From Candidatus Dadabacteria bacterium (GTDB lineage: Bacteria; Desulfobacterota_D; UBA1144; Nemesobacterales; CSP1-2), in assembly GCA_963805855.1 (NCBI GenBank), contig CAWDVW010000005.1, positions 384,001 through 448,000 on the forward strand: a stretch of DNA of 64,000 nt, in the 5' to 3' direction. The notes beneath the pieces were generated by a model, which ran no database searches, had not been told where the DNA came from, and saw nothing but the letters and a program-made list of their open reading frames with translations. Each line of letters starts with the position of its first letter. Positions within the stretch are counted from its first letter, which is position 1. The position numbers and the translations under genes are program-made. This document shows positions 3,977 to 64,000 of the stretch, piece by piece.

Positions 3977-5251
3977 TTGAAGCTCAGCAAGCAGATTACT
4001 TTAGGATATGCATTGATGTTTTTTGTGATTATCCTAATAAGTGGTTTTTCCATCCACAGTATCTACAGGCTTGATAAAGCTGCTTCGAATTTAGAAGGAC
4101 GATATACAACTCTATATAAACTGATTTCGAAATCCAGCAATAAGGAATTAACCTCCGAAAATGAAAAGTTTGGAAGCGAAATGATCGATCAAGCCCTAAC
4201 CCTTATCGATCAGCAAGTCAAGCGTTCCTATACAAACATTTTCTTGGTAGTAGGAATCGCACTGTTGTTCAGCGGAGCAATAGCTGTGCTGTTTCCAATA
4301 AAAATCACAAGACCAATGTTAAGATTAGTAAATGCTACTAAATCCGTCGGTTCAGGAGATTATTCATATAGAGTAGAGAATCTTGGAGGCTCAAACGAAA
4401 TAGCTGAGCTGATTAGTTCATTTAATAAGATGCTTAAGAATATACAGGTTACTCACGAGTCCAACGTGAAACTCCTTGAACGAACAAAGCAATTCAACGA
4501 CGTTCTCGAAGAAAAAATTGAGGAAGCGACTAAAGATATAAAAGAAATGCAGAATGAACTCATAAAATCGGAGAGGTTAGCCACTATTGGAGAAGTTGCG
4601 GCAAAAATCGCCCACGAAATTAAAAATCCTCTATCCGGTATATCGATCGCACTTGAACTGATGAAAAACAAAACGCCAGACGATGATCAAAGACAAAAGG
4701 TTTCTGAGATTTTATCAGAGGTAGCACGATTGGACCGTATTATTAAAGACATGCTACAAATAGCGAAGCCTCCGGAATTATATCTTCGAACAATTTCACC
4801 AAACGAAATCGTGGAAAAGGCCATAGCCCTGGTTATCCCTAAGGCAGATGAAAGAAGGATTAAAATTGACAAAAATCTAAATTGTGGAGATTCTTTTTGC
4901 CTGGACCCTGAAAAGATAGAGCAAGTCCTCATAAATCTTTTATTAAATGGAATTGACGCAATCAACCCTAGTGGGGGAAAAATTACGGTTGAAACTGAAA
5001 CCCTGAAGAATGAACTATTCATAAAAGTCTCAGATTCTGGTTGTGGATTTCCCGAAGTAGAGATAGAAAAATTATTCCAACCCTTCTATTCAACTAAACG
5101 GACCGGGACCGGATTAGGACTTGCAATCTCTAAAAGAATTGTTGAGTCACATAGGGGCAGGATAATCGCCTCGAGTGAAGTAGGGAAGGGATCAATATTT
5201 ACAATTGTTATACCTAATAACTTAGAAGATGAATATGAAGCTACAAGCTAA
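3977..5251 (+). CDS. Sensor histidine kinase (2 TM, HAMP, HisKA, HATPase)
   Basis: H-box AHEIKNPL, N-box NLLLNGIDA, DSGCG, FYSTK, GTGLGL. Confidence 0.95.
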   Translation: MKLSKQITLGYALMFFVIILISGFSIHSIYRLDKAASNLEGRYTTLYKLISKSSNKELTSENEKFGSEMIDQALTLIDQQVKRSYTNIFLVVGIALLFSGAIAVLFPIKITRPMLRLVNATKSVGSGDYSYRVENLGGSNEIAELISSFNKMLKNIQVTHESNVKLLERTKQFNDVLEEKIEEATKDIKEMQNELIKSERLATIGEVAAKIAHEIKNPLSGISIALELMKNKTPDDDQRQKVSEILSEVARLDRIIKDMLQIAKPPELYLRTISPNEIVEKAIALVIPKADERRIKIDKNLNCGDSFCLDPEKIEQVLINLLLNGIDAINPSGGKITVETETLKNELFIKVSDSGCGFPEVEIEKLFQPFYSTKRTGTGLGLAISKRIVESHRGRIIASSEVGKGSIFTIVIPNNLEDEYEATS

Positions 5252-20181: not shown

Positions 20182-20210
20182 AAACTCGGGGCCAGGCATG
20201 CAATTTGACA
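20182..20210 (+). repeat. 29-bp direct repeat, copy 1
   Basis: AAACTCGGGGCCAGGCATGCAATTTGACA; 28/29 identical to 21743-21771. Confidence 0.85.
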
Positions 20211-21742: not shown

Positions 21743-21771
21743 AAACTCGGGGCCAGGCATGCATTTTGACA
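21743..21771 (+). repeat. 29-bp direct repeat, copy 2
   Basis: AAACTCGGGGCCAGGCATGCATTTTGACA. Confidence 0.85.
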
Positions 21772-57477: not shown

Positions 57478-57685
57478 GGGATCGTTCCCGCGCGGTTTTT
57501 CATCGCAATCACTTCGTTACAATCCCTTGTTAACCGACAATGGTAAGCGTGACCTGTAGGAGCGGCTTCCAGCCGCGAGGATAAACGCAAGTCATCCATA
57601 ATCCGCGCAGCACACCAGTCCCTGCCCTGAGCAGGGTCGAAGGGTTGCTTGTGTGACTTCGGAATAGATTCGGACCACGCCCTGT

Positions 57686-58000
57686 CTAACGGCCGTATTT
57701 CTTGACCGCTCGATCGATCGCAGGCCCCGCCTTAGCGAGATCCTTTGGTACCATTACCGGCTGAATCTCGATGCTTGCGTTGAACGCGAGGAACCACGGT
57801 TCTGCAATCGCAGGAATCTGTGAAGCGTCCTTCATCTCCAGGAATATGAAGGCCGTTCGTCGCCCGTTGTCGGCCGCGAAGTAGACAGCCTCGGGCTTCA
57901 AATCATCCAGAATGGACTGGATGGTCTTACCAAGTTTTCCTTCCTTCGCAGCCGCGTTGCCGGCCTCAACCGGCATGTTCACCTTTAATAAGAAGCGCAT
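57686..58000 (-). CDS. Small conserved hypothetical protein (DUF3303-like)
   Basis: LKPEAVYF...GRRT, IPAIAEPWFLAFNASIE; GGAGG RBS. Confidence 0.75.
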   Translation of the reverse strand: MRFLLKVNMPVEAGNAAAKEGKLGKTIQSILDDLKPEAVYFAADNGRRTAFIFLEMKDASQIPAIAEPWFLAFNASIEIQPVMVPKDLAKAGPAIDRAVKKYGR

Positions 58001-58162
58001 AGCTTACCTCCTGAGGTTTTAGGTTCTCGGATTCATGAGTGCCGAATAGCAATCAATTATACCTCAAATCCCTCAATACTCATCTTGTAAAAAGCCCAAT
58101 TTCAACTAAATAGACAAAATGAAGGAATTGGCTAAATCGACCCAGACTTGCTAGGTTTATTG

Positions 58163-58190
58163 AAAAGGTACAATGTTAAGCAATGATCCC
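58163..58190 (+). repeat. TGACCC-ended repeat, copy 1
   Basis: AAAAGGTACAATGTTAAGCAATGATCCC, 17 bp from oxalate decarboxylase stop. Confidence 0.75.
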
Positions 58191-58207
58191 GTGATCTTCG
58201 TCAAAAC

Positions 58208-59386
58208 CTATTTGGGCTGCCCACTCTTTTCCGCTATGAACACGTCACGCTTGGGGAAACTTTCGAACAACTCTGGTGGTTGAGCAAAGTTAGTGGCGAG
58301 AACGTCGGCGGGATTGCCCGCAATCCATTGCGACAAATCGATCGTCGCATAGATGCCAGTGTTGAAGCCGATGAGAATGCGCGCGTTGTTTTCCCCAACG
58401 TTCTCAATCGAGTGCCCATATCCCTGCGGGATGTACCCGACGTCTCCCTTCTCCAGTTGCTCGATCCGATACCGGCCGTGGGAACCGAACAGGGTCACGC
58501 TTATCTGACCCTCGATGACATACTGCCACTCGTCAGCAGTCGGATGCCAGTGTAACTCGCGTAAGGCTCCGGGATCGAGATCGAGGACAACTCCAGTGAT
58601 CGTCCTGGAGATGGGGAATTGCGTCGAATCGACACGCCAATCGCGGCCGCCCTTGAACACGCCACGCGGTGGCTGGGCGAGGAGCCGGTACTTGTGCGTC
58701 TGCGGTGGTTTCTTCCGGCCCTGGAGCGGCGGCGCGGGTGCCTCGGGAGGAACAGGCCCACGGGCAAAGTAGACCTCTTCTTTGGGGATTGTGTCGAACG
58801 CCGCCTCGGGCAGGCCGAAGTTTTTCGCCAAGAGTGCCTTGGGTGTGTGGCCAATCCAGTCGGTGATGCTAAAAGTCCCGAATTCGGAGAAATAGCCGTT
58901 GTCGAAGATCAGGATGAAATGGCACGGCTGCTTGCCGAGGCACTGCAACATGTGGCCGTGACCGCGTGGAAAGTACCAAACGTCACCCGGATCGAAGTCG
59001 TCCGTCTCCGCGTAACCCTCCGGATCGATGACAGTTGTCCGCACACGCCCCGCGATGACGAAGGCCCATTCGGCTGCCGTGGCGTGCCAGTGAAGCTCGC
59101 GCATTACCCCAGGCTCGAGCCGCATGGAGACTCCTGCGATCCCCTTGGAAATCGGCAATTGTGTGACGGTTGCCTCCTTCCCATAGCTCTTACCGATGAC
59201 CTTGCCTTCGGACTTCTCGAGGGCAAATTTAAACGTCGGGAGTTCCTTACCGGACAGGATGGGATCTGGGACATTGTTCATGAAACTCGGATCTCCAGCT
59301 ACTGCCGGCAATGACCCTCTCCCCACAGTCTGAGCCGCGAGGCCCGTGCTCCCTGCTGGAAACTCTTGATGTTGCGAATCCGCCAT
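58208..59386 (-). CDS. Oxalate decarboxylase family bicupin
   Basis: Two RELHWH cupin motifs, FSEFGTF lid, YFPRGHGH / YIPQGYGH; ATG after AGGAGG. Confidence 0.9.
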   Translation of the reverse strand: MADSQHQEFPAGSTGLAAQTVGRGSLPAVAGDPSFMNNVPDPILSGKELPTFKFALEKSEGKVIGKSYGKEATVTQLPISKGIAGVSMRLEPGVMRELHWHATAAEWAFVIAGRVRTTVIDPEGYAETDDFDPGDVWYFPRGHGHMLQCLGKQPCHFILIFDNGYFSEFGTFSITDWIGHTPKALLAKNFGLPEAAFDTIPKEEVYFARGPVPPEAPAPPLQGRKKPPQTHKYRLLAQPPRGVFKGGRDWRVDSTQFPISRTITGVVLDLDPGALRELHWHPTADEWQYVIEGQISVTLFGSHGRYRIEQLEKGDVGYIPQGYGHSIENVGENNARILIGFNTGIYATIDLSQWIAGNPADVLATNFAQPPELFESFPKRDVFIAEKSGQPK

Positions 59387-59564
59387 GTTGCCTCCTAGAT
59401 ATGTGCCATCGATAGTCGCCCCCAATTCTCTTCGGCCGAACTATAAATTAGACGGCACAGATTTACACTGAAATTCTTGCTGTTTAATCACCTCAACTGG
59501 GTATCCTAGACAGCAGAAACTTAGATGATTAACAGGGAAACCAATTTAAGCTAAACAGAGTAAT

Positions 59565-59834
59565 ATGTCAAGAATCACCGTGAATCCCTCGAACACGGAA
59601 AATAAGCCCAAGAAGCTCCTTGACCAAGCCCGGGGTGCAATACAGCTCAACCACTATTCCGGCCGCACCGGCGAGAGTTACGGTCAGTGGAGTAGGCGAT
59701 ATATCTTCGTTCATAATAAACGTCACCGAAAGAATATGGGTAACGCGGAGACCGAGCCATTTCCGACACACCTTACCATCAAAAAGCAGGTGTCTGCCTC
59801 TACTCAAAATCCAGAGAGAAATTTAAGGAATTGA
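59565..59834 (+). pseudogene. intI: Truncated, degenerate integron integrase N-terminal fragment
   Basis: KPKKLLDQ.R.AI.L.HYS.RT...Y..W..RYI..HNKRH...MG..E...F.THL.....VSASTQN then abrupt loss of similarity. Confidence 0.8.
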
Positions 59835-59866
59835 CCAAACGCTTGCAAAATTACTAAAATTGTTGA

Positions 59867-59894
59867 AAAAGGTACAAAGTCAAGCAATGACCCC
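59867..59894 (+). repeat. TGACCC-ended repeat, copy 2
   Basis: AAAAGGTACAAAGTCAAGCAATGACCCC, 16 bp from LLM stop. Confidence 0.8.
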
Positions 59895-59910
59895 TTTATT
59901 TTGTCACGCA

Positions 59911-60936
59911 CTAGCGAAACGCCGGAATTACTTTTCTCGCGAACAGCTCCAGGTGCGGCTGCACCCAGCTCGCCGGGAGACCCGGCGGGACCGTAAAGGA
60001 GTAATAGTGAGTCAGCGGCACTTCTTTTACATACGCGCGAATCATCTCTATACAGGTATCGACATCCACCACGTTAAACAAGCCCAGCTCCCGGAGGTGC
60101 TCCGCATCACGGATATGGGGTAGTAACGGCATCCCCGCCTTTTCAAACCACGCCGCATAACCGTTCAGCTGATAGAGTATGTGCTCCACGGCTTCGTGCC
60201 ATGTCTTCTCGGGATCGTGTGAAGCGATCAGCCAAAAGTACCCCCCGCCAATCGTGAGATTGCTCGTCGGCTTGCCCAGGTTCTCTAATTCAGCTATGTA
60301 GTGGTCGTAGAGTTCTTTAATAGGTCCGGTCCCCACAAACCCGTCCCCGTATTTCGCGGCGCGCCGAACCGCGGCTGGGCTGAACCCTCCGACCAGCAGG
60401 GGCGGCCGGGGTTTCTGGACGGGCTCCGGGGCGAGTTTGGCGTTATTGACCTCGTAATATTTCCCTTTGTAGGTGAGCGTCTCGCCTTCCCAAAGACGAC
60501 GGATGATTTCCAGCCCTTCATCGCTGCGCCCGCCCCGCTCTTTTCTGGGAATTCCGAAGCTCTCGAACTCCTCCACCTTGTAGCCGTTCCCTACTCCGAG
60601 CTGGAAGCGGCCTTCAGAGAGTATGTCGATTGTTGCGCCGTCCTCCGCCACCCGGATAGGATTATGAAGGGGTAAAAGCATGACGGCCGTACCGATGCGG
60701 ATTGTCCTGGTTCGCGCTGCGATAGCCGCCGCGATCGGTAACACCGACGATGAGAAACCGTCCTCGTGGAAGTGGTGTTCCTGGAGCCAGACATCCTCGA
60801 AGCCGTTACGCTCTGCCCAGACGATCTGGTCCAGTGTTTCACCATATATATCCGTATAGGGACGTCTCCACTGAGGAGGATTGCGAAAGTCATACCACAA
60901 ACCGAACCGCAGACGAGCGTTTGTATCCATGTTCAT
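59911..60936 (-). CDS. LLM-class flavin-dependent oxidoreductase
   Basis: VWLQEHHF, LPLHNPIRVAED, GRFQLGVG.GY..EEF, PRPPLLVGG. Confidence 0.9.
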   Translation of the reverse strand: MNMDTNARLRFGLWYDFRNPPQWRRPYTDIYGETLDQIVWAERNGFEDVWLQEHHFHEDGFSSSVLPIAAAIAARTRTIRIGTAVMLLPLHNPIRVAEDGATIDILSEGRFQLGVGNGYKVEEFESFGIPRKERGGRSDEGLEIIRRLWEGETLTYKGKYYEVNNAKLAPEPVQKPRPPLLVGGFSPAAVRRAAKYGDGFVGTGPIKELYDHYIAELENLGKPTSNLTIGGGYFWLIASHDPEKTWHEAVEHILYQLNGYAAWFEKAGMPLLPHIRDAEHLRELGLFNVVDVDTCIEMIRAYVKEVPLTHYYSFTVPPGLPASWVQPHLELFARKVIPAFR

Positions 60937-61196
60937 ACCCCCAAATAGTTTTGGCCCTCGATGTTTAACCCAGTTCGGGCGTGAATGTTTCCTATCCCCA
61001 TTATTTCACAGGGGATAAACTTTTTCAAACATAATCTGTTTTGCTGCTACGCGCAGGCATGACAAGCATAATGAATAATTCGCAATTCCATACCGAAACT
61101 AATCTTTTATAATCGGTGACACATCCCGACCCTCAGGATAAAGGGAGAAATTGAAATAACTGATCAAATCGATCCAACCTTGTTTTAATTGTATTC

Positions 61197-61223
61197 AAAA
61201 AGTACAAAGCCAAGCAATGACCC
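61197..61223 (+). repeat. TGACCC-ended repeat, copy 3
   Basis: AAAAAGTACAAAGCCAAGCAATGACCC, 14 bp from SnoaL stop. Confidence 0.75.
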
Positions 61224-61237
61224 GATAATCATTCAAT

Positions 61238-61663
61238 TTAGGTCAGCTGGGCCTTGAGGCCGTCGAAGTCAAACCAGAGGTTCTCCTTTGCGATAAGCCC
61301 ATCCCGCAGCTCGAAGACGTGCAGAAGCCGTAGGCGCACCCTGCCGCTCTTACCGTCGAGTTTGAAGGGACGGCCATCCACCACGTCCCCGATCCAAATC
61401 GTCTCGTCGATGATGAAGTTGTCTCCGCCGAAGCGCATCACCGGCTCCACGCGCTCACCATTGACATCCGCGAACAGGCGCTCGTAAAAGCGACGAATCG
61501 CAGCTTTTCCGCGCAGCGGACCATCCGGCCCACCGACCACCTCGTGCTCGGCGTCGTCGGTGAAAGTTCGAAGCACGCCCTCAATGTCGTCGGTCGCCTC
61601 GTACATAAAGTGGTCATTTATGACCTTGTCCATCATTTCCCTGCTCATGGTTCCCACGTTCAT
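61238..61663 (-). CDS. SnoaL/NTF2-like (ester cyclase) protein
   Basis: DIEGVLRTFTDDA, GKAAIRRFY, LHVFELRDGLIAKE; GGAGG RBS. Confidence 0.85.
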   Translation of the reverse strand: MNVGTMSREMMDKVINDHFMYEATDDIEGVLRTFTDDAEHEVVGGPDGPLRGKAAIRRFYERLFADVNGERVEPVMRFGGDNFIIDETIWIGDVVDGRPFKLDGKSGRVRLRLLHVFELRDGLIAKENLWFDFDGLKAQLT

Positions 61664-62027
61664 GACCTCCGCTCTTCTTTGATTGTTGAGAATTACCCGC
61701 GTTGGCACCCAAGTCGGCCCACCAGCCGGTATCCCGGCTTCGATTCCTTCCAGCGACTACTAACTACACTCCGAGAATGCAGTAAAATTCTCAGTTGGAG
61801 TTATGATAACACGAATCGCTGTTTTGCCCCAACATGCAACAAGTCTAATTACACATCAAGAGACGGAAAATGGAAGCCCCCAAAATACAAGATTCTTGTT
61901 CTGTTTCGCCAAGCTATGCGGCGAAAGCGTTGCTCTATTCGTACGGAACGGGCCATACCTTATGAATCAGGCTTACCTCTTTTTGGATAGGATCACCCTG
62001 TTGTCCCACTCGTTTGGGATCTGTGCT

Positions 62028-63129
62028 CTACTTCCTCACCACATACCAGTTGTTCTGGATGTCGTGATCAAGACGGTGCGTTTCGATAGAGCGAAAACCC
62101 GCCCGCTCCAGATACTCCCGCGTTCTTTCTTCTCCCCACATCGCCCCCAACCCTTCACCGCCTTGCGCGAGGGAAACTGTCATGCAGTGCATGCAGGAGA
62201 CCGTATAAAGGAGTGTCCCGATTGGGTGCTCGATGTCCTTATGAATATGGCTCGTACCGCTGATGTCCTGCATCAGATACACACCGTCCGGTTTCAGAGC
62301 CCGGTAAATGCCCCGGAGAACGTTGAGTGGCTTGGCTTGGTCATGGATCGCATCAAAGGTCGCAACGAAATCGAAGGATTCGGCCTCGGCGGTCTCGTCG
62401 AAGTTGCTCAAATCCCTTGCGACGAACTCAATGTTGTTTAGCCCACGCCGTGCTGCCTCCGCTCTTGCGAATGCGATCGCCTCCTCCGAGAGATCCATTC
62501 CCACAAGTCGGCTCCTTGGATAAAGCTCGGCCACTCGCATCATGATCAGACCCCGACCACAACCAACATCAAGAACCCGCATGCCTTTCTGCAAGGACTC
62601 AGTCAAGCCCGGCACGAGCGGGAGGATGTGCGATTCCAGGGACGAAAGCACGGACTGGCCGCTATCCTCCGCCATCACTTCGTGAAACCGTGGGAATCTG
62701 GAATATGGGAACTCCTCCCCCCTTCCTGAAACATTCCACGATGTCATCCTCTACGCCGCCAAGCCCTGAAATATACTGCGTAAATACCGCAATGTTGTCC
62801 GCACCCGCCGACCGGGTGAGAAACGCCGCGTGTTCCGCTGGCAACAGGAACCTGCCGGTGTTCGGATCGATCTCCACCACTCGCCCGGTGACCATGGCTC
62901 CAAGCCACTCACGCACGTAGCGCTCGTTAAGGCCTGAAGCACGTGCGATTTCCTCGGAGGTGCTCGGCGGCAATGTGCTCATGACATCGAAAAGCCCGGT
63001 GCGATGGCCTAAAGAAACCATTAGACAAAGGGCACCATTGTTGAGCACAGTTAGTAATTTGTCGGCGAATCCCTCTGCCTTCGCCTGATCGAATTTGGAA
63101 TCTGCGTCTGTCTTTGACACGGTTCTCAT
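62028..63129 (-). pseudogene. Class I SAM methyltransferase with N-terminal wHTH (Rv2258c-like), one frameshift
   Basis: GLNERYVREWL, FRKGGGVP joined to YSRFPRFH by removing one base near 62708; VLDVGCGRG, FDAIHD, GLGAMWG. Confidence 0.85.
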
Positions 63130-63158
63130 ACCTCCATAGTTGCTGTATTGCTTTTCCC

Positions 63159-63180
63159 GCCTAACGCCGGATTTCAGCCG
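63159..63180 (-). other. Possible 3' half of an integron attC site
   Basis: Minus strand CGGCTGAAATCCGGCGTTAGGC (GTTRRRY) about 30 bp before RBS/ATG of the methyltransferase; no matching RYYYAAC found. Confidence 0.35.
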
Positions 63181-63253
63181 TCGCTTCGACGAGCTGTCGA
63201 TTTCAAACTAACAATGAGCCGACCACCACTTAATATTACAAAATCACCACAGC

Positions 63254-63616
63254 TCATTCATTGATCCATCGCAATGCGTCCTCGCGTTTGCTTGAAGAGA
63301 AACTCCTTATCTCGCCGCTAATCGCCAATGTAGCGATTTTCAATCCCCACTCGACCCATTTTGGCCCGCCAATTACACCCATCTTTTCAAAATCGTTTCT
63401 GTGTGTGAGTCCAAAACGAGAGTCATCCCATAATGCTGCAGCCTCCCAACCATGGAATTCATCACCCATATCCAGCAGAAGCCGCGCCTTGCCGTGTTCG
63501 CGGATAATCGATTCCAAGCGTGGAATAAGTACATCCTTATAGTCCCCGTCTGTCAATTTGCCCACAGCGCCAAGTATAAGAATATTCCCCTTGCTTTCCG
63601 GTGACACCTTAATCAT
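63254..63616 (-). CDS. SpoIIAA-like (STAS/SEC14) protein
   Basis: GKLTDGDY, ARLLL, AALWDD.RFGL.H, IRSFS...EDALRWI. Confidence 0.85.
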   Translation of the reverse strand: MIKVSPESKGNILILGAVGKLTDGDYKDVLIPRLESIIREHGKARLLLDMGDEFHGWEAAALWDDSRFGLTHRNDFEKMGVIGGPKWVEWGLKIATLAISGEIRSFSSSKREDALRWINE

Positions 63617-64000
63617 GGGATTCTCGGTTCAGGTCGCGCGTTGAATTACGCGAATGTTCGCAACCACTTTAAATTATACCGTGTGAAATCGGAAACAGTT
63701 AAACAATAATCACTCGAATGAAACTTCGCATAAACACCCCAATATCTGGTGTTATGAGAACAATTGTCACCCTTATGTTTGTAAGGGAGTATACTTAAAA
63801 ATGTTCCGTTGAGGCAAAATCTACGAGACGAAATGCAATGACAGACCGGGTGTGGGCTCCCGCTAAAGCCCGTACTCCAGTGTCACCCGATCAACGCATT
63901 CGAGTGCAGGATTGATCGGGTAATTAGGTGGAATGACACACCCAAAACGGAATAGCGCAGGGAAATTGTTGCCTGACAGCTTTTTCCTAATTCTGCATCG

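Follow-up and report, generated by a model that had tools for sequence, protein, structure and literature searches.

Genes and repeats at the locus

This report concerns a 64-kb window from the genome of a Candidatus Dadabacteria bacterium (the whole stretch analysed, G000:C5:384001-448000; coordinates below are relative to the window unless a contig is named). A GC-rich stretch of this window, from about 57.5 to 63.2 kb, begins directly after a SIMPL (DUF541) gene and contains three genes, for a bicupin, a luciferase-like monooxygenase (LLM) and a SnoaL-like protein, each with a copy of one repeat just behind its stop codon. It is near certain, judging by the sequence, that these repeats are right ends (RE) of a TIRYT element, the full form of which is a 993-bp element in the related genome G002 (hereafter, the element). 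The features of the island are listed below; the profile matches are to a right-end profile described in the next section.

57686..58000, minus strand: DUF3303 gene, the first island gene after the SIMPL gene
58100..58189, plus strand: RE unit w1; aligns to element positions 902-993; profile match 58106-58198, E 5e-12
58208..59425, minus strand: bicupin (oxalate-decarboxylase-like) gene; Cupin_1, 3e-48; GC 0.58
59565..59834, plus strand: integron-type integrase fragment, dead; PF13495, 1.4e-12; N-terminal SAM-like domain only
59804..59893, plus strand: RE unit w2; aligns to element positions 904-993; profile match 59806-59902, E 8e-15
59911..60936, minus strand: LLM gene; Bac_luciferase, 1.6e-62; GC 0.57
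61137..61223, plus strand: RE unit w3; aligns to element positions 909-993; profile match 61134-61227, E 2e-14
61238..61708, minus strand: SnoaL-like gene; SnoaL_2, 1.3e-12; GC 0.58
62028..63616, minus strand: methyltransferase gene (two overlapping frames) and SpoIIAA-like gene, a module common to a sister genome

The 25-bp core pattern of the repeat has exactly three matches in the window (58165-58189, 59869-59893 and 61199-61223, all on the plus strand, with 0, 0 and 1 mismatches in that order) and none in 100 dinucleotide shuffles of it; a separate repeat search of the window returned the same three-copy family (D1). An earlier note, made from the letters of this DNA, had reported same-orientation repeats behind the stops of the oxalate decarboxylase, LLM and SnoaL genes, and this is borne out. 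Counted from the last C of the motif to the stop codon, the distances are 18 (bicupin), 17 (LLM) and 14 bases (SnoaL-like); the note had the last one right and the first two (17 and 16) off by one. It also spoke of a weaker likeness some 40 bp further; the likeness is present and extends for about 60 bp beyond the core, which gives the full units listed above. The frame that the note read as KRYKVKQ-stop is that of w2, with the variants KRYNVKQ-stop in w1 and KKYKAKQ-stop in w3.

Each repeat lies to the left of its minus-strand gene with its outer end facing the stop: w1 that of the bicupin gene, w2 that of the LLM gene and w3 that of the SnoaL-like gene. Unit w1 is itself 100 bp upstream of the DUF3303 start, and the inner end of w2 abuts the truncated integrase fragment. 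Conservation among the three units is higher in the core, at 87% (65/75), than in the interior, at 58% (117/200; Fisher p 7e-6).

The three genes have a GC content of 0.57-0.58 against a genome mean of 0.441 (standard deviation 0.059; 2577 open reading frames, ORFs), and 6.6% of ORFs reach 0.52; it is this composition that backs the description of the genes as foreign in the earlier note. The likely ATG of the bicupin gene, as we read the sequence, is at 59386 and is preceded by AGGAGG. The DUF3303, methyltransferase and SpoIIAA-like genes of the island are all on the minus strand as well.

Identity of the repeats and their relatives

A 22-mer of the repeat was sought, with up to 2 mismatches, in 61 related genomes, 15 of them from the bacterial family of the window and 46 from other families of its order. 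It is present in six genomes, all of the window's family (16 copies in G001, 4 in G002 and 5 in G007), and the 46 genomes of the other families have no copy at up to 2 mismatches. Many of the copies in G001, G002 and G007 are paired in opposite orientations at distances of 200-990 bp. The longest of these pairs belongs to G002; its 22-mers, identical and inverted relative to each other, enclose the 993-bp element, which has one long ORF (L011:1507-2448, minus strand, 314 aa) ending in RKYKVKQ-stop inside the right repeat. The protein passes PF01797 Y1_Tnp with 47 bits (cut-off 23) and NF047646 REP_Tyr_transpos with 87.2 bits (cut-off 80), and the HYH and RY..K motifs are visible in its sequence; its C-terminal tail gives weak matches below the cut-offs to Bac_DnaA_C (E 0.027, 14.9 bits, cut-off 31.5) and Sigma70_r4 (16.8 bits, cut-off 24.1). 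Four miniatures of 377-487 bp with inverted 22-mers at both ends are internal deletions of this element.

In the alignment to the element, the window copies cover its last 85-92 bp, that is, about 27 codons and the terminal inverted repeat. A profile for which 13 right ends of relatives were the sole input ranks them 1-3 in the whole genome. The earlier note had suggested that such motifs resemble the 3' termini of Y1 transposase genes and had proposed to look for their coincidence with Y1_Tnp genes; the full G002 element, with an ORF that ends in the repeat and passes both models, confirms this.

REP-associated transposases have relatives with long flanking inverted repeats, the transposase being called TIRYT and the element TIRtron (Di Nocera et al. 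2013, PMC3733652; Quentin et al. 2018, PMC6006769, TnpAREP subclass 2.1). According to the available parts of these two papers, many TIRtron repeats carry GGGGWSAS, and the end repeats form moderately abundant families of single, paired or grouped copies (PMC3733652, PMC6006769); many TIRYT proteins have a DnaA_C or helix-turn-helix (HTH) tail, with HTH/Bac_DnaA_C in subclass 2.1.2. The repeat studied here starts GGGGTCAT, which matches GGGGWSAS at 7/8 positions. With its Y1 transposase of REP-associated type and its flanking inverted repeats, the element classifies as a TIRYT/TIRtron, a known but barely studied kind, named in two works of the literature searched.

The window's genome, 93.8% complete, has no close full copy of the transposase by tblastn with the G002 protein. 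The same search returned five paralogs at 33-39% identity with other end repeats, which start GGGGTCAG, GGGGTCAA and the like, and two remnants of the transposase, a 35-aa N-terminal piece on contig C2 and a 69-aa C-terminal piece on contig C6. Since there is no cognate transposase in the genome, only the 33-39% paralogs, the window copies are orphans. There are six copies of the core in this genome at up to 3 mismatches. The C2 remnant is a decayed miniature (G000:C2:309396-309630) with a left end of about 137 bp and a right end of about 103 bp, the sole two-ended copy in the genome. A further weak copy of the core, with 4 mismatches and a profile E of 0.39, lies at G000:C5:82097-82126, about 30 bp after an apparent tRNA 3' end (a T-arm motif recognised by eye).

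The earlier note also mentioned a repeat at 20/21 kb, which is present in two copies:

20188..20210, plus strand: putative end repeat of a paralogous family, left of a GC-rich frameshifted Fic-family gene
21749..21771, plus strand: second copy of this end repeat, 85 bases after the stop of the Fic-family gene

The two direct copies thus flank the Fic-family gene (GC 0.60-0.64, frameshifted). The repeat starts GGGGCCAGGC, resembling the end repeats of the paralogous elements; we take it for the putative end of a second TIRYT-type family, and no transposase gene was found beside it. It is GGGGCC-headed, and the interiors after its two copies differ, one being like a copy on contig C4 and the other like a copy on contig C7.

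In our species collection the core occurs in 23 loci, assigned by record titles: 13 in Nitrospira or relatives, 8 in one Thermodesulfobacteriota metagenome-assembled genome (MAG), 1 in Vicinamibacteria and 1 in Dadabacteria. The end repeat has crossed phyla. In the Nitrospira copies the core is combined with an unrelated GC-rich interior, and core and interior together are probably their own version of the element; the conservation of the core can thus reflect transposase recognition across diverged family members. The 87% likeness of the core against 58% of the interior among the window units is what three separate insertions of diverged family members would give. By tblastx at 1e-10 the island has no homology to the core-bearing Nitrospira loci. 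In the Nitrospira-titled MAGs (L093, L102, L103, L105, L106, L110) the 22-bp core is preceded by AGAGATG and heads a conserved GC-rich sequence that several of them share.

Position behind stops and synteny breaks

The distance to stop codons was assessed for all 34 copies at up to 3 mismatches in G000, G001, G002, G007, G006 and G012; a copy was counted as stop-proximal if a convergent ORF (80 aa or longer) has its stop within -25 to 40 bp of the outer end. This is so for 14 of the 34, compared to an expected rate of 5.6% of all positions or 9.1% of non-coding positions; the binomial p of 7e-7 is too small, since some copies are orthologous. Genes of ordinary GC account for eight of the 14. 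In one native case an AT-rich gene has the element 16 bases (G001:C6) and 12 bases (G002:C125) behind its stop, and the window's genome keeps a decayed remnant of the element at the matching site. With 14 of 34 copies near a convergent stop, those of native genes included, we regard the stop-proximal position as a property of the element.

The island is variable at the genus level, and synteny breaks at the edges of the units. The rearrangement events are few and come from three related sister genomes and metagenome contigs, so they are not independent. The locus is present in salt-marsh and mangrove samples (X1-X12). The contigs were compared to the window at 90% likeness; runs X3, X7 and X8 have no contig cover in parts and are uninformative on absence there. 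The order in G001 is SIMPL-DUF3303-RE-LLM with a single unit, a hybrid with an outer flank like w2 and an interior like w1. The bicupin module (58175-59572, 89% identity) is in G001 on a different contig, in a tRNA-linked variable region. The module of the methyltransferase and SpoIIAA-like genes (62022-63810, 88% identity to G001) begins, in the one genome as in the other, 6 bases beyond its stop; a repeat core lies 29 bases ahead of this stop in G001, and there is no such core in the window's genome. At G001:C32 a GC-rich block of 6.9 kb starts 4 bases from a repeat end, where the window's genome has 444 bp. In a contig of run X8 a w3-like core is joined through 12 other letters to the stop of the monooxygenase gene. 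Composition shifts and the order of cargo among strains were what the earlier note had proposed to compare, and the copies do coincide with both the shifts and the breaks of synteny between sister genomes.

At the locus, G002 has other GC-rich genes and a right end of 183 bp; the end of its SIMPL gene is also duplicated over 77 bp, which looks like the footprint of the integration of a circle by a single crossover. In L060 (G002:C15) the two copies of the SIMPL gene end (77-80 bp) lie at 2567-2646 and 4180-4256, on either side of a GC-rich gene and the 183-bp right end.

Some observations in the neighbourhood are recorded here in their own right. The methyltransferase (62028-63129, minus strand, with an Rv2258c-like HTH) is in two frames in the window and is a single 363-aa ORF in G001; contigs of three public runs have one base fewer near 62706-62710 and near 63128-63130, and the split may be an assembly error or a strain-specific frameshift. 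A REP-type palindrome of another family, with at least 10 near-identical copies spread over six contigs, lies at 57554-57579 in the GC-rich tail behind DUF3303. Beyond the window, the final 45 kb or so of the contig (G000:C5:1040734-1086245) contain ORFs of 64-78% GC in a 44% genome; either a very foreign island or a chimeric assembly join could account for this.

Competing explanations and known systems

We presume, with some reservation, that the elements inserted behind gene stops in a flexible island, alongside an integron integrase that is now dead, and then decayed to stubs that mark points of rearrangement. Each repeat is an orphaned TIRYT right end, consisting of the last 27 or so transposase codons and a terminal inverted repeat of 22-25 bp. 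Elements, or right-end miniatures of about 90 bp, would have entered behind gene stops in an island that gathered foreign genes next to the integrase; after the decay of the insertions, their conserved cores could have served as passive landmarks or short homologies where segments were lost, gained or moved between species. The array in this genome would then be a fossil rather than a working capture system. The earlier note had proposed an integron-like gene-capture array that uses Y1 ends; in that form it is not supported, and none of our results shows the ends to be recombination sites for gene capture. Speaking against it are the missing cognate transposase, the 58% likeness of the interiors, the placement behind native AT-rich stops too, the lack of an attC-like fold, and the elements of the relatives, which are ordinary two-ended insertion elements with miniatures.

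Several observations weigh against the picture of decayed insertions and suggest a different one, in which a gene and the RE of about 88 bp downstream of it form a mobile module. A TIRYT acting in trans would nick and rejoin single strands at the core, the right end being a site-specific recombination site for this Y1 HUH enzyme; two direct ends would release a circle, the circle would enter at a resident end, and an integron-like array would result. The inner limits of the three units lie between positions 885 and 909 of the element, as do those of the solo ends known from G001:C72, from G002:C107 and from a Dadabacteria MAG; this is a point against decay, since random decay does not predict it, and the discrete unit length counts in favour of a module. 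The common inner limit could reflect a miniature of about 90 bp using an internal pseudo-end, the element reading ACAGGGAGAG there, close to the head of the repeat, or else a functional minimum. Three of the four best profile matches of the 3.1-Mb genome fall within 3.1 kb. For six of the 14 stop-proximal copies the gene in front is GC-rich, against the ORF baseline of 6.6%; three of these six are the present locus. Between DUF3303 and LLM, the window's genome has one unit more than G001 as well as the integrase stub and the bicupin gene, as though inserted or deleted between two units, and the unit in G001 is a hybrid. The left break of the relocated bicupin module in G001 is inside the repeat core before GTCAAG, and the right break is just after another GTCAAG. 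A contig from a mangrove metagenome follows the window only as far as the inner edge of w3 and diverges precisely at 61136, so that the link of SnoaL and its RE is kept; LLM and its RE likewise stay together in G000, G001 and a metagenome contig while the neighbours change. The 6.9-kb GC-rich island 4 bases from a repeat end in G001 and the conservation of the core above the interior can be counted on the same side. The breaks at unit edges, GTCAAG, the shared inner limit, the clustering and the GC-rich bias fit active ends better than pure debris.

We nevertheless consider mobile modules of this kind unlikely. The cognate transposase is absent from this genome, the coincidence of GTCAAG may be a 6-bp microhomology, some island genes have no RE behind them (e.g., two genes of G002 and the methyltransferase module of the window), and the events, drawn from three related genomes, are few and non-independent. 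Degenerate copies that would close the modules were proposed by eye at 59519-59580 and 63815-63850; they give no profile match at E up to 10, and the idea that a unit closes every module was dropped for this reason. A candidate end repeat of another family in the third spacer (61040-61090) was also rejected, with low alignment scores of 19-23. Our literature search turned up no report of such activity.

The integrase stub makes it tempting to propose a decayed classical integron, in which the GC-rich genes are attC cassettes and TIRYT miniatures targeted and destroyed the attC hairpins; IS1111-attC elements and group IIC-attC introns do target such hairpins. The stub is 89 aa long, covers positions 1-65 of TIGR02249 with 49.6 bits (cut-off 265), lies inside the array divergent from the bicupin gene and ends where w2 begins. 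No integron integrase above the curated cut-off of TIGR02249 is found in this genome; among the genomes searched, true ones are present in 4 of the 15 of the bacterial family and in none of the window's genus. The units are in one orientation where attC sites would be, and GCTTAAC in w1 matches the inverse core site; this is the only perfect RYYYAAC, and no unit has a partner core site. We judged attC likeness by folding against shuffles and by core-site motifs. However, folding of the units together with their flanks is not more stable than that of shuffled sequences, whichever strand is taken (z -1.24 to +0.28); the same holds for the ends of the element (z 0.20-0.62, with no REP-type hairpin), and the attempt to rebuild an attC site by removing the unit in silico gave joined flanks without an attC-like stem (z -2.66 to +0.43), so no hairpin is predicted with or without the unit. 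In addition, the end takes the same position behind a native gene outside any integron, and the spacers of 130-480 bp are long for cassettes. We find this explanation very improbable. A second integrase fragment suggested by eye at 61544-61990 was rejected (nothing in Pfam at E up to 1; BLASTP to the first fragment E 1.6); this stretch has translated similarity only, to a stretch beside the integrase fragment of G001.

We give even less credence to an exapted regulatory site, i.e., a core kept as an insulator or terminator of one gene or as a promoter or operator of the next. The core is indeed more conserved than the interior, contains TTGAC and is placed between tandem genes; but transposase recognition explains the conservation equally, the Nitrospira copies being an example. 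There is no enrichment of promoter-like sites (8 against an expected 5.0 +/- 2.2) or of terminator-like ones, none of the 8 has its -35 box in the TTGAC of the three cores, and the units contain no terminator-like site and no stable fold. A split terminator around w1 (7-bp arms AGCCCAA/TTGGGCT and a T run) is not relied on; its gene-side arm differs in G001:C46.

If the ends were recombination sites after all, arrays of foreign genes could be built and reshuffled across the phyla that share the core (Nitrospira, Acidobacteria, Dadabacteria); this would be the integron's single-strand counterpart, driven by an HUH enzyme, and a second, mechanistically different gene-cassette system. If they are not, the case cautions that repeat arrays of one orientation beside foreign genes can be transposon debris. 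Either way, the locus defines a right-end unit of about 88 bp, a cross-phylum core and a measurable preference for sites behind stops, and it supplies several natural before/after comparisons in which foreign-gene modules change neighbours at unit edges.

The closest known system is TIRYT/TIRtron, which has the same Y1 HUH transposase of REP-associated type flanked by long inverted repeats, not REP hairpins. The GGGGTCAT head agrees with the published motif at 7 of 8 positions, and the C-terminal HTH-like tail is a weak match below the cut-offs. Solo right ends of a discrete length of about 88 bp that keep the last codons, the strong bias behind stops and the breakpoints of a foreign-gene island are not mentioned in the available parts of the published descriptions. 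The REP/RAYT systems (REPtrons, REPINs) share a related transposase that passes REP_Tyr_transpos and short derived repeats scattered downstream of genes; in contrast, a palindromic hairpin and a GTAG head are both lacking here, and the miniatures are two-ended, like those of an insertion sequence.

Integron arrays and CALINs (attC clusters without an integrase) resemble the locus in the array of one orientation with a repeat of about 90 bp after each of the unrelated, compositionally foreign genes, in the dead integrase fragment within the array and in the content that varies among sister species. They differ in that our repeats come from a transposon end with no attC fold and no paired core sites, the intergenic spacers are long and the integrase is only an 89-aa stub. 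IS200/IS605 elements have subterminal hairpins, no inverted repeats and a small TnpA, whereas here there are inverted repeats and a 314-aa ORF with a C-terminal extension, and no hairpins were found. The HUH enzymes of IS91/ISCR and Helitron, where a single end of about 80 bp can suffice, mobilise neighbouring genes and are of the Y2 or Rep-helicase type; here, the enzyme is of the Y1 type, and the linked gene is on the outer side of the end.

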